Virus record (IMG/VR): IMGVR_UViG_3300034683_000092
Span: 32,584 to 96,583 of that record
Source of the DNA: a virus
Length of the DNA: 64,000 nucleotides
Reading direction: 5' to 3' (one strand)
The position numbers and the translations under genes were made by a program. Positions 2,503-64,000 of this stretch are shown here, one piece after another (positions within the stretch are counted from its first letter, which is position 1; each line of letters begins with the position of its first letter). The notes below the pieces were generated by a model, which searched no databases, was not told the DNA's origin, and was given only the letters and a program-made list of their open reading frames with translations.

Positions 2503-2976
2503 ATGGAAACAAATCAAGAAATAGAATTCAATATTCCAGAAGGATATGTGATAGATAGTAGTAAAAGCACTGAAAACAAAATAGTGTGCAAACCTATTGA
2601 ACCACAGTATCCTAAATTATGGGAAGACGTATTTTGGGCAAAGCCAATATCAGGGTTTGATATTAAACTTTACAACAGTGATATTAGAAGTGCAACGAGC
2701 CGTGAAAAAGCACTTTTTAAAACTGAAAAGCAAGCTGCATCCTCTTTAGCATATGCTCAATTAACTCAACTAATGGCATTGCCATGTTATAATGGAGATT
2801 GGACACCTTGTTGGAATAGTGACCAGATTAAATATTGTATTGTAAGATATGATGATGAAATTGTAGTAGATGAAATGTTCCATAATTTTGAATTTCTAGC
2901 TTTTAAATCTAAAGAAGCTAGAGATGTTTTTTTAGAAAATCATTTAGATTTAATTGACAAATTCCATCAATTATGA
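2503..2976 (+). CDS. Hypothetical phage protein
   Basis: 157-aa ORF with IPEGY and DWxPxW..KYxI..FKSKE pattern typical of Bacteroidota phage hypotheticals. Confidence 0.75.
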   Translation: METNQEIEFNIPEGYVIDSSKSTENKIVCKPIEPQYPKLWEDVFWAKPISGFDIKLYNSDIRSATSREKALFKTEKQAASSLAYAQLTQLMALPCYNGDWTPCWNSDQIKYCIVRYDDEIVVDEMFHNFEFLAFKSKEARDVFLENHLDLIDKFHQL

Positions 2977-3152
2977 CAACTGGTAAAAAGCTAATTAGCA
3001 CAATGGATAATTCTGGATTTGCTGTATTCCGCACAAAAACATGGGGAACAAGAGATTATCAATCTGATCGTAAGAAACGAATTAGAAAGATAGTTTCTAA
3101 AAAACTTAGAGTTTATCTAAAACGTGATTTAAATAAAATTATAAATGAGTAA
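2973..3152 (+). CDS. Small basic protein, 59 aa (not in ORF track)
   Basis: MTTGKKLISTMDNSGFAVFRTKTWGTRDYQSDRKKRIRKIVSKKLRVYLKRDLNKIINE; ATGA overlap with the upstream stop and overlap with the downstream start. Confidence 0.65.
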   Translation: MTTGKKLISTMDNSGFAVFRTKTWGTRDYQSDRKKRIRKIVSKKLRVYLKRDLNKIINE

Positions 3153-54173: not shown

Positions 54174-57100
54174 TATATTGTATATGTTATTATTAAATCA
54201 TGAAAAACAAGTTTAGCTGGTTTAGACTGAAACTTATTATTATAAACAAGTTTTAGTGATGCCCACGGATTTCTAATTCTATGTATAGAGTTAGCTTCCC
54301 TAGGTAATGTAGAATTCCATATTCTAAACCGCCTAGTAGTGCCTTTTTCTATCACAGGAGTAGACTTAGTATTATCCATTATGTATTTAAATCCATTCTG
54401 ATATTCATTGCTTATAGATAAACTATTAAAAGACTCTTCTGGAACAAGTATATTATATTCGTTAGAGTTTGAATCATAAGAGAATACATCAGCTCTCCAT
54501 TGGATATTGTCGAATATTTTATCTAGAACTCCATCTGGATTAATGAATAATTCAACGTGTGAATCTTTTTTATTACCAAAGAATGTGTTGTAATCTCCAT
54601 CAAACATTGAATAAACATCTGAATGACTATCAGTAGTATATCTGTTGGCTATTAAGGAGTTATTTATGCTATCCATAAATGATGTCTTATCATAAGAATA
54701 CCTCCCCTCAAAAGCTTGAAGTTTATCAGAGTATTTTATGCAATCATCTTTTGTTATAATATATACATCATTATTAGACAAATCTGAAATAACTCTCTCT
54801 ACATCAAAATCTATAGGATTCCATCTTTTGTCTTTATAGAATATGTTTTCTTTAAACCACTGGCTACACCCTGTTGTTTCAGAAATGCTTTGCAATGACT
54901 CTCCGTTAGTGTAAAACAATTCTTGTCTATTGCTGTCAACGAAGACAACACCATCTTTAAATTTATCTATAGACCATTTATTATCTGAGCCTATTTCTTT
55001 AGATATATATCTAGTGCTATCTATTTTTGCAGAAGAGGCTAACTCAATTGGAACTCCATCTGATGTATTTACTTGGACTCTTGAATTAAAGAATATCTTA
55101 AATAATCCCTTATTTTGGAATCCTAAAATGTTTTCTCCACTTGTGAATAACTTACTAATCTTTCCTTTTGTACCATCAACAAAATAGGTAGTACCTAATT
55201 GGATGCTAGTCCATTCGTCTATTTTAGCACCAGGTGATTTCTCGTTAGTTATTGCAAAAGCAGATGGCATATTATCTGAATCTAATAAGTCATGATCTAA
55301 ACTTTGGTATTTAAAATAGTTATTAGATTGAGAGTACACATCATTATATTTTCCGTATGTCTCAAACGTCGAGTATTTTGAATTAGATTCATATCTGTGT
55401 TTGTCATATCTGCCATCTAAGTTAGAGTACGATTCACATATAAATGATAACACATTTGAATTCTTTTGCCAAGAATCAGAAGATCTTGGAGTAGTTCTTA
55501 ACACATCATATCTTTGAATGAATGTATTTCCCTCTGTAATTTCTATTAAATCAGTAAATCCATTATTTATAATATCAGAAAGCTTTAAAGATTGACCACA
55601 TGGAATCCATATATTAGACTTCAATGATTCTTCTGTTGCAATCCAATTACCGTTGATAAACTCTTGACCACCATACTGTATTGAATAATTAGATGAATGC
55701 AAATCTCTTACTAAGTCTACAATCCAAAAATATCCATATGGAAATAAAGAAGTAAAACTATCGTATGAATATCCAAAGCAAGTATTAGTACTTAACAAAG
55801 GCAAATAGTATTTAGACCCGCCACTTTTTCTATAAAAAGGTTTTGTTAATCCAGAGTTCGTGTCTGGGTAAAGCATCTGTGGATTATATTCAGTTCTAGA
55901 TTCGCCTGGTACTTCAAATTGCGGCATAAGCATTTGATACGGCTGATCGCTAGAATACCCCAATGATAAAAGAATATGATTATTGGCTTTATAGTTTATG
56001 TATAAAGTTTGATCTGTGCTTAATGCGTTAATTTCATCAACATAATTGTTGTATATAATAGTGCCGCTATCTCCATCGTTTGAATCTTGTTGATATTTTA
56101 TTGTTTCATCTGTAGCCCTAACAATTGACGGTTTATATATATTTAAATCAGTAATGCTATTGTCTACTGAACTTAAAAACATTCTATTAAATCCACTAAA
56201 TATAATAGATGAAATGGATTTGTCAGAATATACTTTGCTTGACTCGTAGAGTAATTGTTTTGCATCCCACAACCTAGTCTCGTCAGTGGCATTAGGAGAT
56301 TTATAATACATTAATTTTGTCGATGCAAACTTAGATATATTTTCATATGACAAGCTTGTTTGAGCTTTGTTTTTGTCATATTTAGTGTCTGTGTTTGTAA
56401 TACTACCATAGTTTTCTGCCATAGCAGTAGCAAATGCTACTCCTCTCAATCTAAGCTTATCGCATGATGCAAGCATTGAATCTATACTTGAATCATTAAC
56501 TTCTGGCGTCCAAAGATTTATTACATTCTTATCTATAAAATATCTTTCAGGATAAGATAATTCGCTATTTGTTATAGATACATGATCTGATGCTATTATA
56601 TATTGATATGGCGATGAGAAATCTGGATCACCAGTTGAAGAAGATACCATTGCTATCTCTGTAGGAGAGTCTTTTAGATATGGATATTTCTTTGTTCCAA
56701 TATTCATACCAGGCCCTCTATATGATAAAAACGAAAATGGGTCTACAAGCATCGGGCCAGCATTTATAGTAGGCCAAGCTGGCCATTCGTTTATAAATTC
56801 CTTATTTGGTCTAGATAAATAATCTGGTACAGCAAATGGTGAATTCCTATATCTATTAGAAACATTTGCAATAGTATTAGTTATAACTCCTTGAGCAATA
56901 ATGCTCTTGTCGCTATTTTTAGGATCTACAAAAACTGGTCTGATTGCCTTAAAGCCATTTGAATATAGCTTTGATATTACATTTTGAAATTTAGCATTGT
57001 TTTGTATTGATCCATATACAGGATTTATTGAAAACTCAAAATTGCCATAGTTTTTATCTAGTTTATTAGACTGATAGCTAATTGGCACTTTAAACTCTTT

Positions 57101-58708
57101 ACCCAAATAAACTGGTTCACTCCACGAACCGTCTTTATACTGAGCCTGTATACCGAACCTATAATACTCATTTTTTCTAAATGATTTTATTGGAACTTGC
57201 AGGTTATCTATTGTTTTTGGTTCATAAGAATAGACGCTATTAGATTTGTTTCTATTTAATGAATCGCAAACAATTATGCTTTTATCGTTATGCCAGAATA
57301 TATCTACAATAGATTCTCTTCTTGTTACTAGAAACTTACTTATTTTTATATCGCTTGATGAATCGTTGCTGTATATCTGAGCGTCAACACCGCTTGCTAT
57401 TAACTCAATAGAGTGCTCACCAATAGAAGTATCTAATGGTGTTGATAATCCAGCTAATAAAATAGTACCATCTGTGAATTCATCAACCGTATAAGTGAAT
57501 TTATATAAAGTCCCGACAGTTAGTTTATCTTCTTGCATTAACGTGTATTGCCCAGTTAAATGCGCAACGTTATAAGAGCCATTAACTGATTGTTCTATAG
57601 CAACGCTACCTGATACATACCCAAATAGGTTATTAGAAAATATTGGATTTATAGTTATATTTGCGTCTTCATATAAATCATCTTCAATTATATCTTTTAT
57701 CTTAGGTCTTTTTATTGATATGTTACCAGCGAACAAAGTGCCTTCTTTTGAAGTTAAAGTTCCAACAACTAATTCATCACCTCCAACAAAAAGAATGTGA
57801 GTATCAGATATAGAAGATCCTTTTATCCCATCGTCTACTAATGTAATAGAGAATGCGTCTTCTGAAATGTTATCTGGTATTTTAATGTCTGCGACTATTC
57901 TACATTGTGCTGTTGTATCTTTGCTTGTTCTTATTACTGAATATACTCTTAAGTAATCAAATCCTGAATCTAAGTCGTTTATAGTTATAACAAAACTATT
58001 TTGAACGGTTTCATCTGGTGATGCGCCTCTATCTTCTTGTGTTAAATAAAACTGCTTTGATGTTTTGAATATGTTTGATTCGCTGCCATTTTTATTCCAA
58101 TAACTAAATGCGTATTGTATAACGCCAGATGGGAACTGACCACCTCCATATTCTTTTGTAATAGATATATCATCTACAAAGTTTATCTCTGGGCAAAAAT
58201 TAAAATTGTTTGCTAATGTGGATGGGTTTTGTATATTGATATATCTTGGCTGATTATAGTCGTCAGTCCAGTATACTTTTATTATATTCTCATTCTCATA
58301 ATTACCAATAGCTTCTATTGGGTCTTTAACACAAAAGTTTAAATTTCCATCAAATAACTTTTCATATATAAAATCATCTTCTTTATATATCTTATATATA
58401 TAATCACCACTAGGTGAATCGTCTCTATTTAAGTTCTTTGTAGAGAATACTACTAAGTATTTGTCTATAACACAAGTGCCTATTACAATACCTTGTATGT
58501 TGTCTATTTGAGATAGGCCGTCTTTGCTTTTTAAAGATAGCTTTTTAGTTCCTTTCTCATTTGAAAAAGAAAACATGTCTCCATTATTTGATTTGCTTAT
58601 AGATATATTATAATTGTCTCTAGAATGTTCGCTAGAAAACTTGCTTATATTTATATCTTTATTCATTCCTTTTACGGGAGATATTCTTATGGATTTTCTT
58701 TCTCTCAT
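54173..58708 (-). CDS. Tail muzzle/stabilization protein (crAss-like)
   Basis: KGMNKD N-terminus, KVYWTD..NQPRYINI, GVIQYAFSY, YRFGIQ, RRFRIW...RIRNPW; beta-rich; synteny. Confidence 0.78.
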   Translation of the reverse strand: MRERKSIRISPVKGMNKDINISKFSSEHSRDNYNISISKSNNGDMFSFSNEKGTKKLSLKSKDGLSQIDNIQGIVIGTCVIDKYLVVFSTKNLNRDDSPSGDYIYKIYKEDDFIYEKLFDGNLNFCVKDPIEAIGNYENENIIKVYWTDDYNQPRYINIQNPSTLANNFNFCPEINFVDDISITKEYGGGQFPSGVIQYAFSYWNKNGSESNIFKTSKQFYLTQEDRGASPDETVQNSFVITINDLDSGFDYLRVYSVIRTSKDTTAQCRIVADIKIPDNISEDAFSITLVDDGIKGSSISDTHILFVGGDELVVGTLTSKEGTLFAGNISIKRPKIKDIIEDDLYEDANITINPIFSNNLFGYVSGSVAIEQSVNGSYNVAHLTGQYTLMQEDKLTVGTLYKFTYTVDEFTDGTILLAGLSTPLDTSIGEHSIELIASGVDAQIYSNDSSSDIKISKFLVTRRESIVDIFWHNDKSIIVCDSLNRNKSNSVYSYEPKTIDNLQVPIKSFRKNEYYRFGIQAQYKDGSWSEPVYLGKEFKVPISYQSNKLDKNYGNFEFSINPVYGSIQNNAKFQNVISKLYSNGFKAIRPVFVDPKNSDKSIIAQGVITNTIANVSNRYRNSPFAVPDYLSRPNKEFINEWPAWPTINAGPMLVDPFSFLSYRGPGMNIGTKKYPYLKDSPTEIAMVSSSTGDPDFSSPYQYIIASDHVSITNSELSYPERYFIDKNVINLWTPEVNDSSIDSMLASCDKLRLRGVAFATAMAENYGSITNTDTKYDKNKAQTSLSYENISKFASTKLMYYKSPNATDETRLWDAKQLLYESSKVYSDKSISSIIFSGFNRMFLSSVDNSITDLNIYKPSIVRATDETIKYQQDSNDGDSGTIIYNNYVDEINALSTDQTLYINYKANNHILLSLGYSSDQPYQMLMPQFEVPGESRTEYNPQMLYPDTNSGLTKPFYRKSGGSKYYLPLLSTNTCFGYSYDSFTSLFPYGYFWIVDLVRDLHSSNYSIQYGGQEFINGNWIATEESLKSNIWIPCGQSLKLSDIINNGFTDLIEITEGNTFIQRYDVLRTTPRSSDSWQKNSNVLSFICESYSNLDGRYDKHRYESNSKYSTFETYGKYNDVYSQSNNYFKYQSLDHDLLDSDNMPSAFAITNEKSPGAKIDEWTSIQLGTTYFVDGTKGKISKLFTSGENILGFQNKGLFKIFFNSRVQVNTSDGVPIELASSAKIDSTRYISKEIGSDNKWSIDKFKDGVVFVDSNRQELFYTNGESLQSISETTGCSQWFKENIFYKDKRWNPIDFDVERVISDLSNNDVYIITKDDCIKYSDKLQAFEGRYSYDKTSFMDSINNSLIANRYTTDSHSDVYSMFDGDYNTFFGNKKDSHVELFINPDGVLDKIFDNIQWRADVFSYDSNSNEYNILVPEESFNSLSISNEYQNGFKYIMDNTKSTPVIEKGTTRRFRIWNSTLPREANSIHRIRNPWASLKLVYNNKFQSKPAKLVFHDLIITYTI

Positions 58709-58709
58709 A

Positions 58710-59408
58710 TTAATGCCTTTTTAATCTTTGCTCAGTACCAGTGTTTTTAAACCTATTGTAGAACTCTCTTCTTCTAGGTATAAGAGTATTCATCTGCGTA
58801 AAGATCCTTTCTGCATCACCAAGACTTAATCTATTCGCATTTGTGTCACACTGTCCAACCCGCCATGAATAATCCTGCTCTGCATTAGTAAAAGATTGAG
58901 CTGTTATTTTACCCATGTCAAAAAGTATAGTATAATGCTTTAATTTGATATACGCTTCTAGAGCAGACGTTGTTTTAGCATCTGACTGTATCATAGGGAA
59001 TCCTTCTTCGTCTATGTTTATAGCGTTATAAACGATGTTTATAGCACCTTCTTCTTTAGATAAAAAAATAAAATCTTTATTTATAGAATACGTTATATCT
59101 AAAGACTGTGTTTTTAGACTTGGATCGTTTTGCTCATTCGCAAATTGCATATTTGAATCACCAGATGTTCTAACTGGTATTCCATTAACAGATATGTTTA
59201 TCTCTGAGACAAAGTCATCAGGTAGTTTACATCTATATTTTGAAAACTTTGAATCGTATGATTTGTTTATAAAAAGATTGCTATTGCCAACAAGCTCCAT
59301 AAATTGAATCGCATAGTCTATAGCAGCTTCTAACTCAATATCTGCCATTAGTGGATTTCTCATCAGTCTATCCACTATAACTTTTATACTTATATATTTA
59401 CCTTCCAT
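58710..59408 (-). CDS. Tail ring/tubular protein
   Basis: ~230 aa; LPDDF, DEEGFPMI, ALEAYI; directly upstream of the muzzle gene. Confidence 0.72.
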   Translation of the reverse strand: MEGKYISIKVIVDRLMRNPLMADIELEAAIDYAIQFMELVGNSNLFINKSYDSKFSKYRCKLPDDFVSEINISVNGIPVRTSGDSNMQFANEQNDPSLKTQSLDITYSINKDFIFLSKEEGAINIVYNAINIDEEGFPMIQSDAKTTSALEAYIKLKHYTILFDMGKITAQSFTNAEQDYSWRVGQCDTNANRLSLGDAERIFTQMNTLIPRRREFYNRFKNTGTEQRLKRH

Positions 59409-59409
59409 A

Positions 59410-59886
59410 TTATTTTAAATCTACATATTGAGTACCATTTGATATAGCTCTTTTAAAGAGCGTTCTAGAGACTCTCATTTGCCATATTGAGCGATTCTTT
59501 ATATTACTAAACCTTGGGTCGTAACACACTTTAAAATACCTATCTGCAATACGCCTTACTAATGTTTTTTGCTCTTTAGACTCTTCGTCTTGCCTCCATA
59601 AAATGTTGGTTGCAGCCCAGTCTATTGGAGCTGTATATTTAATGCTACCATCTGGCATTATCTTAGGCTCTACAGTATAACTATAAAAAGTTATTTCTCC
59701 AATATAAAATGGCAAATCGATTGTTCCATCTCTAACAAACATATCACCTAGATAGCTATTTGCCCTAGATACTATGTTTGAAAAGTCATTTAATGACATA
59801 TAATAGCCATCTGGTTTATTTTTCATAAAATACTTATACGCATCAAGCATATTTAAACTCCATCTAGCTCTTGGTCTTGGTCTCAT
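59410..59886 (-). CDS. IHF/HU-like protein of the crAss-like tail block
   Basis: G.IDLP..IGEI and PIDWxAT..LW; lies between two ring genes. Confidence 0.6.
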   Translation of the reverse strand: MRPRPRARWSLNMLDAYKYFMKNKPDGYYMSLNDFSNIVSRANSYLGDMFVRDGTIDLPFYIGEITFYSYTVEPKIMPDGSIKYTAPIDWAATNILWRQDEESKEQKTLVRRIADRYFKVCYDPRFSNIKNRSIWQMRVSRTLFKRAISNGTQYVDLK

Positions 59887-60567
59887 TTATTGTTTTTTAT
59901 TTAAATCGTCTGATGCATTATTAACCTCGTCGCTGTTTAACCTGGAACTTCTTAAAAGCCTTTCTACAATGACTTCTATTAGAGTTGATTGTAACGAGTC
60001 TTCTAATGGAAATTCAATGTCTAGCATGTCAAATCCATTCTTATCTTCATTAAAGAAGAAAACCTCTCGTGGGTTATCAAATACAGCAGTTAGATTTACT
60101 GATTTTAAATACTGTATTGCATTTCCATTAGATTTTGCTATAAGCTTATTATTTTTATCTAAAGAGAAATAGATCATTTTGTTTAGAAATTGATTGTTTC
60201 CAACAAATCTAATTCTTTCGTATGGAACAAAAGACATGTGTATTCCATTTAAGTCATTACCAACTGAGCTAATAGATACGCTTGAGTCTAAAGCTCCAAT
60301 GCTTACCATTTGAGGAATATAAGAAGTGCTTATAAGCTCATTTGTAGACAGTCCTAAATCATCGTTTTTCTGCTCAAATGAGACTTTGACTGTTTGAGTA
60401 TTAGAACTAGGTATCCGTTTTCTTACATCTGAATACTTTTGTTTTAATAACATAGATCTATATTTATCGATTAAATAAGATATATGTGCATCGTTATATA
60501 GCGAATCGTCAGATGTCGCTCTTATTTGGTCTAGTATTATATATACTAATTCTCTGTATGTACTCAT
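59887..60567 (-). CDS. Tail ring protein (true start MSTYRELV at 60567)
   Basis: TYRELVYxILD, YRxMLLKQxY, AVFDNP, FPLE. The track start at 60582 lies inside the IscB element. Confidence 0.72.
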   Translation of the reverse strand: MSTYRELVYIILDQIRATSDDSLYNDAHISYLIDKYRSMLLKQKYSDVRKRIPSSNTQTVKVSFEQKNDDLGLSTNELISTSYIPQMVSIGALDSSVSISSVGNDLNGIHMSFVPYERIRFVGNNQFLNKMIYFSLDKNNKLIAKSNGNAIQYLKSVNLTAVFDNPREVFFFNEDKNGFDMLDIEFPLEDSLQSTLIEVIVERLLRSSRLNSDEVNNASDDLNKKQ

Positions 60568-61850
60568 ATTAAATTTCGGCAAGGAAACCCATGTATTGAT
60601 GCATGGGAGGAATTGCCACTATTCCTTCTTTCTATTAATAATGTTCTTCTTATTTCTACTAACCGTAATGTCTTGCAGTTGACACTGCCTTTGTCGACTT
60701 TGGTTCCGTTCAACCTGCGAATATCGAAATAACCACTCTTTCTTCTTCCGAACACATAAAACAGTTCTTTCTGATATTCCACTAAGTCAAACAGTCTAAA
60801 TCCTTTTACCGTGAAAGGAGCCTGATTGAGCTTCTTCTTGCCGCCTTTCAGAATATTAGCCTTATGTAACTGTCTGTTCTGACATCTTACTTTCCTTTGA
60901 TAGAAGTAATATCCAAGAGGCTTAGCTTGCGGGTTTCCGCTTATACAGCGAGCATCAACATAGTGCTCCTTTGGGAGCCCATTAACAATACGGGTATTCT
61001 TAGTGATATATCCGAATGTCATAGATACATTGGAATATATTTGCTTCAGTCTTTCAAGAAAAGCCCATCGCATAACGCCCATAAATGAGGCGTCTCGGAA
61101 TGAAGCCCCACGTTTCACCTTTAGCTCAAACTTACCAGAATGATAAGCCTTGTGACAGGTCTCGCACAACGTGATAAGGTTGCTTGGGCTATTGCCTCCA
61201 GTCTTTCTCGACTCAAGGTGGTGTACATTGAGAATCTTATTTCCGCTCTTCCCATGACAATGCTGGCATGTATGCCTGTCACGCCAAAGAACGTATTCAC
61301 GGATATTCCAAAATCCCATCTGCTCTCCATTCTGATAATCTTCGCCATCAACATTTGGATTCTTTATCTTCTGAATGTCAAAAGATGCAGTTTCGACGAC
61401 AATTTTTGATATAGGAAGTATTTTGTAAGCGTCCATCACAACCGTCAAGTGAGTCTGTATTTTGTTCTCGATAGACGGAGCCATCCATCCTTTATGCTTT
61501 GACGATACCCGATTATTAAATCGAGCCTTACGATAACGAAGCCTGCTTCTACGTGTTCTTCTCTGTTCTCTACGTGTAGAGATCTTATCCACAATGTCGT
61601 TCCTAAGCTCAACGTTTGCAGCATACAAATCTTTTTTATCTGTCGTAGCGCATACGCCTATGAATTTACTTCCTGCGTCTATTCCCAACGTTATTGGCTG
61701 CGTGATTTCAGTTGTATCATAGTCCAATTGAATTGTAAACGGAATATGTCGCACGACATGAGCAAGACCACTTTTCAACAGTCGTCTTACTTTTCCATGT
61801 CTATCTGTAGGCATCAATGCCTTCCCCTGTCTGTTTGTTACGTAAACCAT
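60564..61850 (-). CDS. iscB: IscB RNA-guided endonuclease (PLMP, split RuvC, bridge helix, HNH)
   Basis: ALMP, GIDAG (RuvC-I), RREQRRTRRSRLRYRKARF (RRXRR), VVE (RuvC-II), CQHC..HH..GGN...NL.TLCETCH (HNH), HYVDA (RuvC-III). Confidence 0.95.
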   Translation of the reverse strand: MVYVTNRQGKALMPTDRHGKVRRLLKSGLAHVVRHIPFTIQLDYDTTEITQPITLGIDAGSKFIGVCATTDKKDLYAANVELRNDIVDKISTRREQRRTRRSRLRYRKARFNNRVSSKHKGWMAPSIENKIQTHLTVVMDAYKILPISKIVVETASFDIQKIKNPNVDGEDYQNGEQMGFWNIREYVLWRDRHTCQHCHGKSGNKILNVHHLESRKTGGNSPSNLITLCETCHKAYHSGKFELKVKRGASFRDASFMGVMRWAFLERLKQIYSNVSMTFGYITKNTRIVNGLPKEHYVDARCISGNPQAKPLGYYFYQRKVRCQNRQLHKANILKGGKKKLNQAPFTVKGFRLFDLVEYQKELFYVFGRRKSGYFDIRRLNGTKVDKGSVNCKTLRLVEIRRTLLIERRNSGNSSHASIHGFPCRNLI

Positions 61851-62100
61851 TATTGTTAATTTAAAATACTGTAAGTCGGATTTCTCCGTTAAATGCTCAT
61901 CGCCAATGTTATAGGGAGGTTTTGTGTGCCAGCAACACTGTTCCTACCTCACAGAACTGTTTAATCACTGACCGCAGAGCAAGGAACTTGAACAAACATT
62001 CCTTTGTGCCTATATATTCTACCCTAACGTAGCACCGAGGTGCTTAGGCTAATCAGTCAAGGCTTCTACAAGCCTGCCCCTTCAGGGGTGGGTAACTGAC
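60568..62100 (-). mobile_element. Non-autonomous IS200/IS605-family IscB element (omega-RNA + iscB, no tnpA)
   Basis: Begins GTCAGTTACCCACCCCTGAAGGGG; ends with hairpin GGCAATTCCTCCCATG...CATGGGTTTCCTTGCC (60578-60617) just before ATGA; visibly more GC-rich than the flanks. Confidence 0.88.
61865..62100 (-). ncRNA. omega-RNA (HEARO-type) scaffold
   Basis: GTCAGT...ACTGAT terminal stem, CCCCTGAAGGGG and GGCTTGTAGAAGCC hairpins, AGCCTAAG, CTACGTT, CTCTGCG, AACATTGGCGATG blocks directly upstream of iscB; 3' end approximate. Confidence 0.88.
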
Positions 62101-62119
62101 ATTTATTATTATAATTTTG

Positions 62120-62232: not shown

Positions 62233-62547
62233 TTATACCGTTTTCTTTTTAATAAAATAATTTTTATAAGAAAACTTAATTCTTTCATTCAGGTAATTGT
62301 CATTTGACTGATTCAAATATGCCTCACGTTCAAAAGGATTATCCTTGTATCCGTACAGAGCATAATAATAGATATATATTATATAAAACAATACATAATA
62401 TAATTCTTTCATTTGTGCCGTATGAATTAATTCGTGATTTATTATTTTCTTTGATATTTTAACTCCTTTTCTAGCAAATAAAACACCAAATAAGTTTATT
62501 GCAGAGAATCCTTTGAATGGAATAATGTTATTATATACTATCTTCAT
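62233..62547 (-). CDS. Small HExxH metallopeptidase-like protein (DUF4157-like)
   Basis: INHELIHTAQ...NPFEREAY with an intervening hydrophobic segment. Confidence 0.72.
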   Translation of the reverse strand: MKIVYNNIIPFKGFSAINLFGVLFARKGVKISKKIINHELIHTAQMKELYYVLFYIIYIYYYALYGYKDNPFEREAYLNQSNDNYLNERIKFSYKNYFIKKKTV

Positions 62548-62754: not shown

Positions 62755-63060
62755 CTAAATGATTCCTGCCTCTGTGCACCAACGTTTAACGTCCTCTGAA
62801 TACCTATTAAACGCTAAGTAATCAGCATCCGTTTTATCTGCAATTCCTTTACGAAGAGCCGCTTCACGTGCATCATCGCTAAACTCTGCACGAATAAAAG
62901 CTGCAATTACCTTGTCACGAGTAACAGGATGTTCAACTCTCACAACTAAAGCTGAAACTTGATTGTCAGCTTCTTCTTGCACATTAAGGTGCACTAGGCT
63001 ATGCCCTGTACCTAAATCCTGAATAGTTTCAGGAATAGAATCGAAAATAAGTTTTTCCAT
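62755..63060 (-). CDS. Hypothetical protein downstream of the DGR-type RT
   Basis: 101-aa ORF, 14 nt after the RT stop. Confidence 0.7.
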   Translation of the reverse strand: MEKLIFDSIPETIQDLGTGHSLVHLNVQEEADNQVSALVVRVEHPVTRDKVIAAFIRAEFSDDAREAALRKGIADKTDADYLAFNRYSEDVKRWCTEAGII

Positions 63061-63074
63061 AATTTTTTTTTTAA

Positions 63075-64000
63075 TTAAATTGTTCCCTCAAAATAATAAC
63101 CTCTATCCTGGAGTATAACCACATCTGTAAGAGGTAACTCAGATCGATCTACTTTTTCCAAGACGTTAATCAAATATTGATAGCTACCACAGAGGAATAA
63201 TTTTTCACCTCTGTATAGTATCTGCATATCTACACGCATTCGATCATTCTTGATAGATGGTAATATGCGATAATCAAGAATCTCAATTTTTTCGCCTACA
63301 ACTTTATCAATCTTGACCTTACGGCCGTCAAATGGCCGCTCTATTTTTATCCCTAAATTAGCTAAACTACCCATGTGATTATTATCATTTGTAATTGTTT
63401 TATCAATTAAATTACGGCTGTTACAATGCTTCATAATGCCCATATAGCTAGCCATTGAGGTTGGACTATGACGTTTCTTTATCATAGACTTTTTAATACT
63501 TTTCCTCACTTTTGTGTAGCCTGGAAAAAACACATAACCTCCCATATCAATGCCATCTTTAACACGACCTATTCTTCGGTTTTCCTTTAGTTCTAGTTTC
63601 AGATTGTACCATAAAAAGTTTCCAATGCCCCACATTATACGATGTAAGTCCTGTTTTGAATCTGATAATATTAGCATATCATCGGCATATCTAAAGTAAT
63701 GTTTAACTCTTAATTCTTGCTTAATATATCTATCAAGCGAACGAAGTATAACATGACTAAGCAACTGAGAGTCTGGACTACCGATTAACAATCCCTTATG
63801 ACTATAATTCATTTCGTCAAGTAACCAAAGCAACTCTTTATCCTTGCAATCACGCCTGTAACATAATGCCAATACATCATTATCAACTGATTCATAGAAC
63901 TTTTTAATATCTAATTTCAAATAATAAACCGACTCTGGTAATAAGATAGCTCTTTTTATCTTTTTGTTCATATTGTATACTTTGTTTCGGCTTGTAATGC
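63075..64000 (-). CDS. DGR-type reverse transcriptase, 5'-truncated by the window edge, with fused C-terminal domain
   Basis: YYLKLDIKKFYxSVD, GLLIGSPDSQ (IGxxxSQ, DGR-like), YFRYADD, GIDMGGY; frame is open beyond 63971. Confidence 0.88.
   Translation of the reverse strand, partial: ITSRNKVYNMNKKIKRAILLPESVYYLKLDIKKFYESVDNDVLALCYRRDCKDKELLWLLDEMNYSHKGLLIGSPDSQLLSHVILRSLDRYIKQELRVKHYFRYADDMLILSDSKQDLHRIMWGIGNFLWYNLKLELKENRRIGRVKDGIDMGGYVFFPGYTKVRKSIKKSMIKKRHSPTSMASYMGIMKHCNSRNLIDKTITNDNNHMGSLANLGIKIERPFDGRKVKIDKVVGEKIEILDYRILPSIKNDRMRVDMQILYRGEKLFLCGSYQYLINVLEKVDRSELPLTDVVILQDRGYYFEGTI

Follow-up and report, generated by a model that had tools for sequence, protein, structure and literature searches.

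Avd is indispensable in the only diversity-generating retroelement (DGR) that has been studied in depth. In the survey of Wu et al. 2018 (PMC5758913), the avd gene is missing from 26% of DGRs and from lineage 3 entirely, from which the authors concluded that some DGRs must work by a mechanism independent of Avd. The same survey reported that ~20% of DGR reverse transcriptases (RTs) carry unexplained C-terminal extensions of up to ~150 aa, in which no motif was found. Here we analysed a 64,000-nt stretch of viral DNA (the window), which corresponds to bases 32584-96583 of a linear virus contig of 96,583 nt (IMG/VR record IMGVR_UViG_3300034683_000092; 95% complete according to CheckV). The last base of the stretch, 64000, coincides with the contig end at base 96,583, and a DGR-type RT gene runs into this end. 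The phage is crAss-like, with a genome of ~97 kb, and encodes a 1511-aa virion protein that is 34% identical to the 'stabilization protein' of crAss001. The RT continues into a 99-aa domain that we describe as OB-like (oligonucleotide/oligosaccharide-binding) from the topology of its predicted model, with weak similarity to solved folds. We consider it probable that the window holds the 3' two-thirds of the RT gene of an Avd-less DGR, and that the OB-like module is the nucleic-acid-binding cofactor of this RT and takes over at least part of the role of Avd.

The closest described systems share much of the layout. The DGR of Bordetella phage BPP-1 (mtd-avd-TR-brt, where TR is the template repeat; structures 8ub7 and 8ubc-8ubf) is the same kind of element, with an enzyme fold that corresponds over the whole of its RT (bRT). 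It shares with the clade described here the GxxxSQ and YxDD motifs, a variable repeat (VR) at the C-terminus of the target and a spacer between TR and RT. BPP-1 has Avd, whereas the window clade has neither an avd gene nor a slot for one. The window clade in turn has an OB-like module fused to or encoded after the RT, and bRT has no such module. Lineage 3 or architecture A DGRs of Bacteroidota phages show the same target-VR-TR-RT order without avd (PMC5758913), and the cassette of the window resembles them in architecture and in the absence of avd. The DGR of the crAss-like phage LMMB was assigned to lineage 3 (PMC7290462). In papers on the DGRs of crAss-like phages, two zeta phages are the sole ones reported with avd, and the RT C-termini are said only to vary. 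The Hankyphage (PMC6199706) and ANMV-1 papers propose an 'Avd-like' small open reading frame (ORF) from isoelectric point (pI) and size only, and leave the domain and the downstream gene undiscussed. The extension left unidentified in the lineage 3 and Hankyphage papers is shown here to be a discrete domain family, whose members are in most cases encoded by a gene of their own downstream of the RT. In Quimbyvirus, the RT is encoded by three overlapping ORFs (PMC8008677), and since the OB gene usually overlaps the RT stop in the clade, the last of the three might correspond to it. Literature searches for DGR accessory factors that are of OB type or independent of Avd retrieved no description of the family. 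One of the 'potential accessory genes' PAG1-4 (Wu et al. 2018) could be the same family. The DGR itself is a known kind of element, and its OB component is apparently undescribed.

The OB-like domain is an RT-linked gene family

The first-pass annotation of the window had taken the C-terminal domain for a formerly independent gene, mentioned similar proteins encoded separately downstream of RTs in Bacteroidota phage DGRs, and proposed a profile search for adjacency or fusion to RTs elsewhere. Database searches agree with this account, the domain being a formerly or alternatively independent gene. A HMMER scan of 1.84 billion representative proteins with the domain returned 35 hits, both fused (435-488 aa) and stand-alone (96-134 aa). 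Querying IMG/VR with ten stand-alone members returned 77 loci, every one with a same-strand RT directly upstream. The domain is a separate ORF in 73 of these loci, usually 14-30 nt after the RT match, and is fused to the RT in the other four. The reciprocal sample comprised the 80 best metagenome loci picked by RT similarity alone. Here, the gene is separate in 67 loci, where it mostly overlaps the stop codon of the RT. Five further loci are fused, three end too early and five have no detectable copy despite room, which places the OB domain in 72 of the 77 loci with downstream DNA. Among species-representative genomes, all 18 hits fall in Bacteroidota (including Flavobacterium, Chitinophagaceae, Apibacter and Prolixibacteraceae), with the domain directly after an RT in 17 of the 18 loci and a TR/VR pair likewise in 17. 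GenBank entries add the archaeal viruses ANMV-1 and vir525, including a Methanosarcinales virus, where the stand-alone gene directly follows the RT. The RT is split into two ORFs at two loci (L164 and L170).

The domain has no counterpart among annotated families. No Pfam family matched any of the 26 members of our domain alignment (A1), which consists of the window's domain and 25 of its hits. The PHROG family phrog_19665, of unknown function, matches 20 of the 26 (best E 4.3e-11), and the window's own domain had no PHROG hit at E <= 0.1. A tblastn search of a phage collection returned nothing for the domain alone, and the whole RT did align through the domain in Hankyphage. The stand-alone members are mildly basic, with a mean pI of 8.7.

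Lack of annotation and the five RT loci without the domain would also suit a lineage-specific passenger, that is, a syntenic phage gene or a role-less thumb extension whose fusion is neutral. We regard such a passenger as improbable given that the linkage extends from viral contigs and proviruses to Bacteroidota chromosomes and archaeal viruses, over RT identities as low as ~40%. The gene almost always lies within 30 nt of the RT stop or overlaps it, and the domain tracks the absence of Avd. The fused or separate state also requires at least three changes on a tree of 166 RTs (FastTree), although the strongly supported branches alone force only one change.

The fusion is conserved among relatives

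The RT::OB ORF of the window is stop-free over 307 codons from the contig edge at 63998 to its stop codon. The ORFs and the Met at 63374 are as first annotated, to which the strand, omitted at that stage, has to be added since the whole arrangement lies on the minus strand. The features are as follows.

63402..63998, minus strand: DGR-type RT, starting shortly before motif 3 and covering palm and thumb (Pfam, PHROG, motifs)
63375..63401, minus strand: linker from the thumb to the extra domain, ending at the Met that matches the start codon of the stand-alone gene (P0037 model, junction Met)
63078..63374, minus strand: 99-aa C-terminal OB-like domain, candidate DGR accessory module, fused to the RT (homologs, AlphaFold2 model, RT adjacency)
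63075..63077, minus strand: stop codon of the RT::OB ORF (ORF reading)
62755..63060, minus strand: 101-aa acidic protein (pI 4.8), by its gene contexts a facultative DGR-linked gene, 14 nt downstream of the RT::OB stop

The RT portion matches Pfam RVT_1 (E 4.8e-11, from profile position 58 of 205) and the PHROG family phrog_1423 'reverse transcriptase' (E 8.7e-49). It contains DIKKFYESVD (motif 3), IGSPDSQ, YADD and the thumb end SYMGIMKHCNS, and thereby shows both the catalytic YxDD and the [I/L/V]GxxxSQ sequence (hallmark GxxxSQ) by which DGR RTs are recognized. The nearest full-length relative, P0037 (423 aa, 96% identical to the window ORF), extends the same sequence upstream. The first RT residue of the window corresponds to P0037 position 117, and the N-terminal 116 residues with the fingers and motifs 1-2 are lost at the contig end. 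An ATG at 63971 was rejected as the RT start because its reading frame continues without a stop up to the contig end and P0037 adds these 116 residues. A pattern scan with the window RT returned solely a distant canonical DGR, L002 (374-aa RT; target-avd-TR-RT). The L002 RT stops ~20 residues past the SYMGIMKHCNS motif, and the ~100-aa extension of the window RT is therefore real. An exact 24-mer from the contig end found no match, and megablast of 56000-62000 against phages found no close phage.

A missed stop or a frameshift between two genes could in principle join an RT to a downstream ORF. The metagenome contig breaks within this very cassette, and a near relative has a 91-aa protein (P0001) called separately, both of which would be expected of an assembly or sequencing artefact. 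We give this explanation almost no credence, and the assembly error that had been considered as a way for the fusion to fail finds no counterpart among relatives. In a search restricted to the C-terminal part, 12 protein clusters are 75-99% identical over the domain and all are fused to an RT, each with PF00078 and a complete domain. The clusters come from Logan, ENA and JGI, and one contains 123 member sequences. Eleven are full-length RTs of 423-460 aa (ten at 423-427 aa), and the twelfth is a 398-aa variant (P0036). More distant fused proteins of 431-488 aa also exist. The more distant fused forms include P0003-5, P0008, Hankyphage, L049, L062, L077, L086, L110 and L169. In the 434-aa Hankyphage RT, the alignment runs through the domain, and the domain profile also matches this ORF.

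The junction Met is retained in all fused proteins inspected (P0002-P0006, P0008, P0022, P0037-P0048 and the Hankyphage RT). It is a scar of the fusion or possibly a start codon still in use. On the RT tree, the window lineage falls within a supported clade of nine fused RTs.

Two relatives are rearranged. In P0016, a near relative, the first ~78 RT residues are joined straight to the last ~26 OB residues by an internal deletion. In P0036, an unrelated N-terminus replaces the fingers up to just before motif 3.

Template and variable repeats of the cassette

TR/VR pairs with at least 80% adenine-specific mismatches were found in 73 of the 77 IMG/VR loci, and in all but one of these 94-138 nt separate the end of the TR from the RT. 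Among relatives whose cassette is complete, L084 is the closest, with an RT 71% identical to that of the window. Its order is target, VR, 91 nt, TR, ~130 nt, RT::OB, 11 nt and a homolog of the 101-aa gene, and 17 of its 18 TR/VR mismatches fall at TR adenines. A self-repeat search of the whole 96.6-kb contig yielded no TR/VR pair because the TR would lie in an unassembled gap. The search for repeats proposed at first annotation thus came up empty within the contig, and succeeded in L084 and across the clade.

The target is a 588-aa, tail-fibre-like ORF on the minus strand at contig bases 2-1765, outside the window, and runs off the contig start in a VR-like stretch. Its C-terminus parallels the VR-bearing end of the L084 target. 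The contig start aligns to 91 of the 110 nt of the L084 TR, and TR adenines account for 16 of the 31 mismatches. The VR-like contig start and the layout of L084 therefore indicate that the two contig ends adjoin in a circularly permuted genome. By this sequence comparison, the assembly appears to have broken inside the TR/VR region, and the contig would begin and end within one DGR cassette. About 0.7 kb would be unassembled, comprising the VR end, the TR, a structured spacer and the first 116 RT codons. DGR variable repeats are known to break contig assemblies (Benler et al. 2021, PMC8008677). The first-pass annotation had placed TR, avd and target beyond the window edge. This appears right for the TR, which falls in the gap; the target lies at the other end of the contig and avd is absent from the lineage. 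Its assignment of the RT to the DGR type stands on the GxxxSQ motif, the best structural match to bRT (8ub7), the repeats of L084 and the VR-like end of the target.

Orphan RNA motifs of Rfam occur in the TR-RT spacers of the clade. RT-3 lies in the Hankyphage spacer (L004 4401-4550, 146.6 bits). RT-17 lies in the spacers of L011, L012 and L014 (~2969-3047) and L016 (2577-2663) at 42.7-53.8 bits, and in L084 at 2673-2769 with 23.8 bits, below threshold. Both motifs are probably DGR spacer RNAs of the Avd-less clade. Many DGRs of the stand-alone clade also contain small genes in tandem that resemble targets, encode 119-138 aa and show the motifs KYYPWF and VGSRLCF, and the second copy lies between VR and TR (e.g., L007 398-775 and L009 2454-2831).

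Absence of Avd

Cassettes with the OB gene show no avd by position or by profile. The gap from VR to TR measures either 40-140 nt or ~500 nt, and what occupies the larger gap is a second small ORF resembling the target and not a gene for a helical basic protein. From gap sizes and filling, these cassettes therefore have no avd slot. The 91-nt gap of L084 leaves no room for avd. The bAvd profile PF22296 matched none of the 48 viral records carrying the stand-alone gene, 13 of which are at least 90% complete, and the control record L002, a canonical DGR, matched it at 2.6e-32. Neither PF22296 nor the 23S_rRNA_IVP family PF05635 matched this contig at E <= 1, with ~0.7 kb of the cassette unassembled.

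The domain itself was also considered as a homolog of known accessory proteins. Homology to Avd was rejected given the beta-rich model as opposed to a basic four-helix bundle of ~120 aa, with no Avd Pfam match in the 26 A1 members. Homology to the MutS-like protein MSL was rejected because the model is rich in beta strands and Pfam returned no hits.

Predicted structure of the domain

The AlphaFold2 (AF2) model of the domain, built from the 26-member alignment, has a mean predicted local distance difference test (pLDDT) value of 90.7. Strands at 39-49, 56-64 and 67-73, a helix at 76-82 and strands at 92-99 and 102-105 give the order b1-b2-b3-helix-b4-b5, which is the OB topology. A beta-rich, possibly OB-like domain had been suspected at first annotation with modelling as the proposed check, and the predicted strand order agrees. 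The model of full-length P0037 shows the same OB layout at an overall pLDDT of 92.8, falling to ~70 at residues 320-340 in the linker. The alignment used for this model (A6) left out the stand-alone domains, which MAFFT had misplaced in A5. The best solved match of P0037 is the Bordetella bRT (8ub7_A; E 2e-21, TMt 0.88, 25% identity), aligned over 336 columns to a 328-residue target, and the next matches are group II intron RTs. The bRT matches without having the extra domain, and therefore the RT core is bRT-like and the OB module an addition.

Structural neighbours of the domain alone are weak. No Foldseek match in the PDB reached E <= 0.001, and the top rows, with E no better than 0.09, are OB domains such as those of Teb1, LEF-3, PRD1 P12 and RPA. 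VIA-align against 48,161 chains gave a best Z of 6.2 for the OB domain of RuvBL2, followed by SSB, PriB and editosome OB domains at Z 4-5.2. Among Atlas clusters with a Pfam family, Phi29 SSB comes nearest, a weak lead only. Compared to the OB binders SSB, PriB, RPA and Teb1, the domain has the same strand order in a small barrel and finds them as top structural neighbours, but Z is only 4-6.2 and sequence similarity is absent, and the domain is at most a candidate member of this group. Teb1, a telomerase factor, provides a precedent for an OB protein that aids a reverse transcriptase.

These neighbours also bear on the main rival reading, in which the OB-like protein would act after cDNA synthesis. 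It would then be a factor that binds single-stranded DNA, guards the mutagenised cDNA and aids replacement of the VR, and a structured spacer RNA (RT-17 or RT-3) would make an Avd-like scaffold unneeded. SSB, PriB, RPA, Teb1 and PRD1 P12 are all binders of single-stranded DNA, the Atlas lead points in the same direction, and RT-3 or RT-17 RNAs fill the TR-RT spacer in Hankyphage and several loci of the clade. The fold matches are weak though, and these data do not distinguish RNA binding from binding to DNA. A subunit of the RT complex would explain the strict translational coupling or fusion no less well than a factor acting downstream. We judge such post-synthetic handling of the cDNA rather unlikely.

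Neighbouring genes

The first-pass annotation had suggested that the 101-aa gene downstream of the fusion may belong to the same cassette, which holds for many loci and not as a constant association. An iterated profile search found homologs in 15 other RT/OB loci, always within the RT-OB block. In nine loci the homolog is flanked by RT and OB, in one it follows OB and in five it follows RT::OB, and 14 of the 15 have a pI of 4.4-5.6. Seventeen viral loci were retrieved with the 101-aa family itself. The RT is directly upstream in 13 of these, 12 of which also have OB, and the other four have neither RT nor OB within 3 kb. The gene is thus linked to DGRs but facultative, and judging by these gene contexts it is a second DGR-linked gene of the cassette. 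The protein has no Pfam family, and its more than 345 clusters are all named 'hypothetical'. A pattern scan and a tblastn search against phages with the 101-aa ORF returned nothing. The CH1 gene of avd-less Bacteroidota-type DGRs (Wu et al. 2018) resembles it in acidic charge (pI 4.7) and context. CH1 measures 160-169 aa as opposed to 101 aa here. The 161-aa ORF after the Hankyphage RT was rejected as an equivalent for lack of similarity.

Beyond the acidic gene by ~200 nt, a minus-strand gene at 62233-62547 encodes a 104-aa protein with a HELIH motif that matches phrog_15610 'protease' (E 3.2e-25), and this gene is probably outside the cassette. An intact-looking IscB-type protein of 428 aa is encoded on the minus strand at 60564-61850 (Pfam RRXRR E 1.3e-59, HNH E 1e-07). 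Upstream of it, a GC-richer stretch at 61851-62110 could be a candidate guide (omega) RNA.

A candidate helper of Avd-less retroelements

The domain is a real one, its fusion to the RT is conserved, the linkage between the two is tight in both directions, the cassettes contain TR/VR pairs and Avd is not found. Tight two-way linkage, translational coupling, repeated fusion and the lack of Avd together speak for the OB-like module being a dedicated partner of this RT clade. We further infer that it binds nucleic acids, is required for cDNA synthesis or for homing and replaces Avd functionally. In the proposed minus-strand cassette, the target with its C-terminal VR would be followed by the ~0.7-kb gap, RT::OB and the acidic 101-aa gene. 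The module would act as a cofactor with the RT in mutagenic retrohoming, possibly by binding the TR-spacer RNA, the nascent adenine-mutagenised cDNA or both. It would thereby take over, at least in part, what the Avd pentamer does for bRT in BPP-1. The fusion would set a 1:1 ratio of RT to module and secure their co-delivery.

Several observations weigh against a cofactor role of this kind. Avd is poorly conserved, and a profile search may have missed it. The similarity to OB folds is modest (Z <= 6.2, Foldseek E >= 0.09) and within the chance range for small beta-barrels, and a sequence-profile search of the PDB with the domain matched no solved protein. The window's own domain is near neutral, with a pI of 7.8. 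The association is also imperfect, with five RT-selected loci lacking a detectable OB copy despite downstream room, and one metagenome-assembled genome of Parafilimonas (L175) in which the OB gene follows a TR and no RT was detected. Decayed or rearranged relatives exist (P0016 and P0036). The TR, the RT N-terminus and the VR end of this particular element are missing from the contig.

Avd-less, lineage-3-type DGRs of Bacteroidota phages and chromosomes and of some archaeal viruses may use a different helper, an OB-like protein fused to the RT or encoded after it that is essential for cDNA synthesis or homing, comparable to the help that OB proteins give telomerase. A subset would have the acidic partner in addition, and the RT-17 or RT-3 spacer RNA may take part. 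We hold this generalization tentatively, at somewhat less than an even chance.

About a quarter of known DGRs have no Avd, and the DGRs of Hankyphage, a phage abundant worldwide, and of crAss-like phages of the gut are among them. The OB-like domain is a strong candidate for the missing helper of these elements, and a protein coupled or fused to the RT makes Avd-independent retrohoming accessible to concrete tests. If the proposed role is correct, a single polypeptide combining RT and helper would become available for directed-evolution tools based on DGRs. DGR annotation would improve, as the small genes that follow the RT currently carry no more than a hypothetical label. The OB-like module would define a second class of DGR ribonucleoprotein and would answer how mutagenic retrohoming works without Avd.

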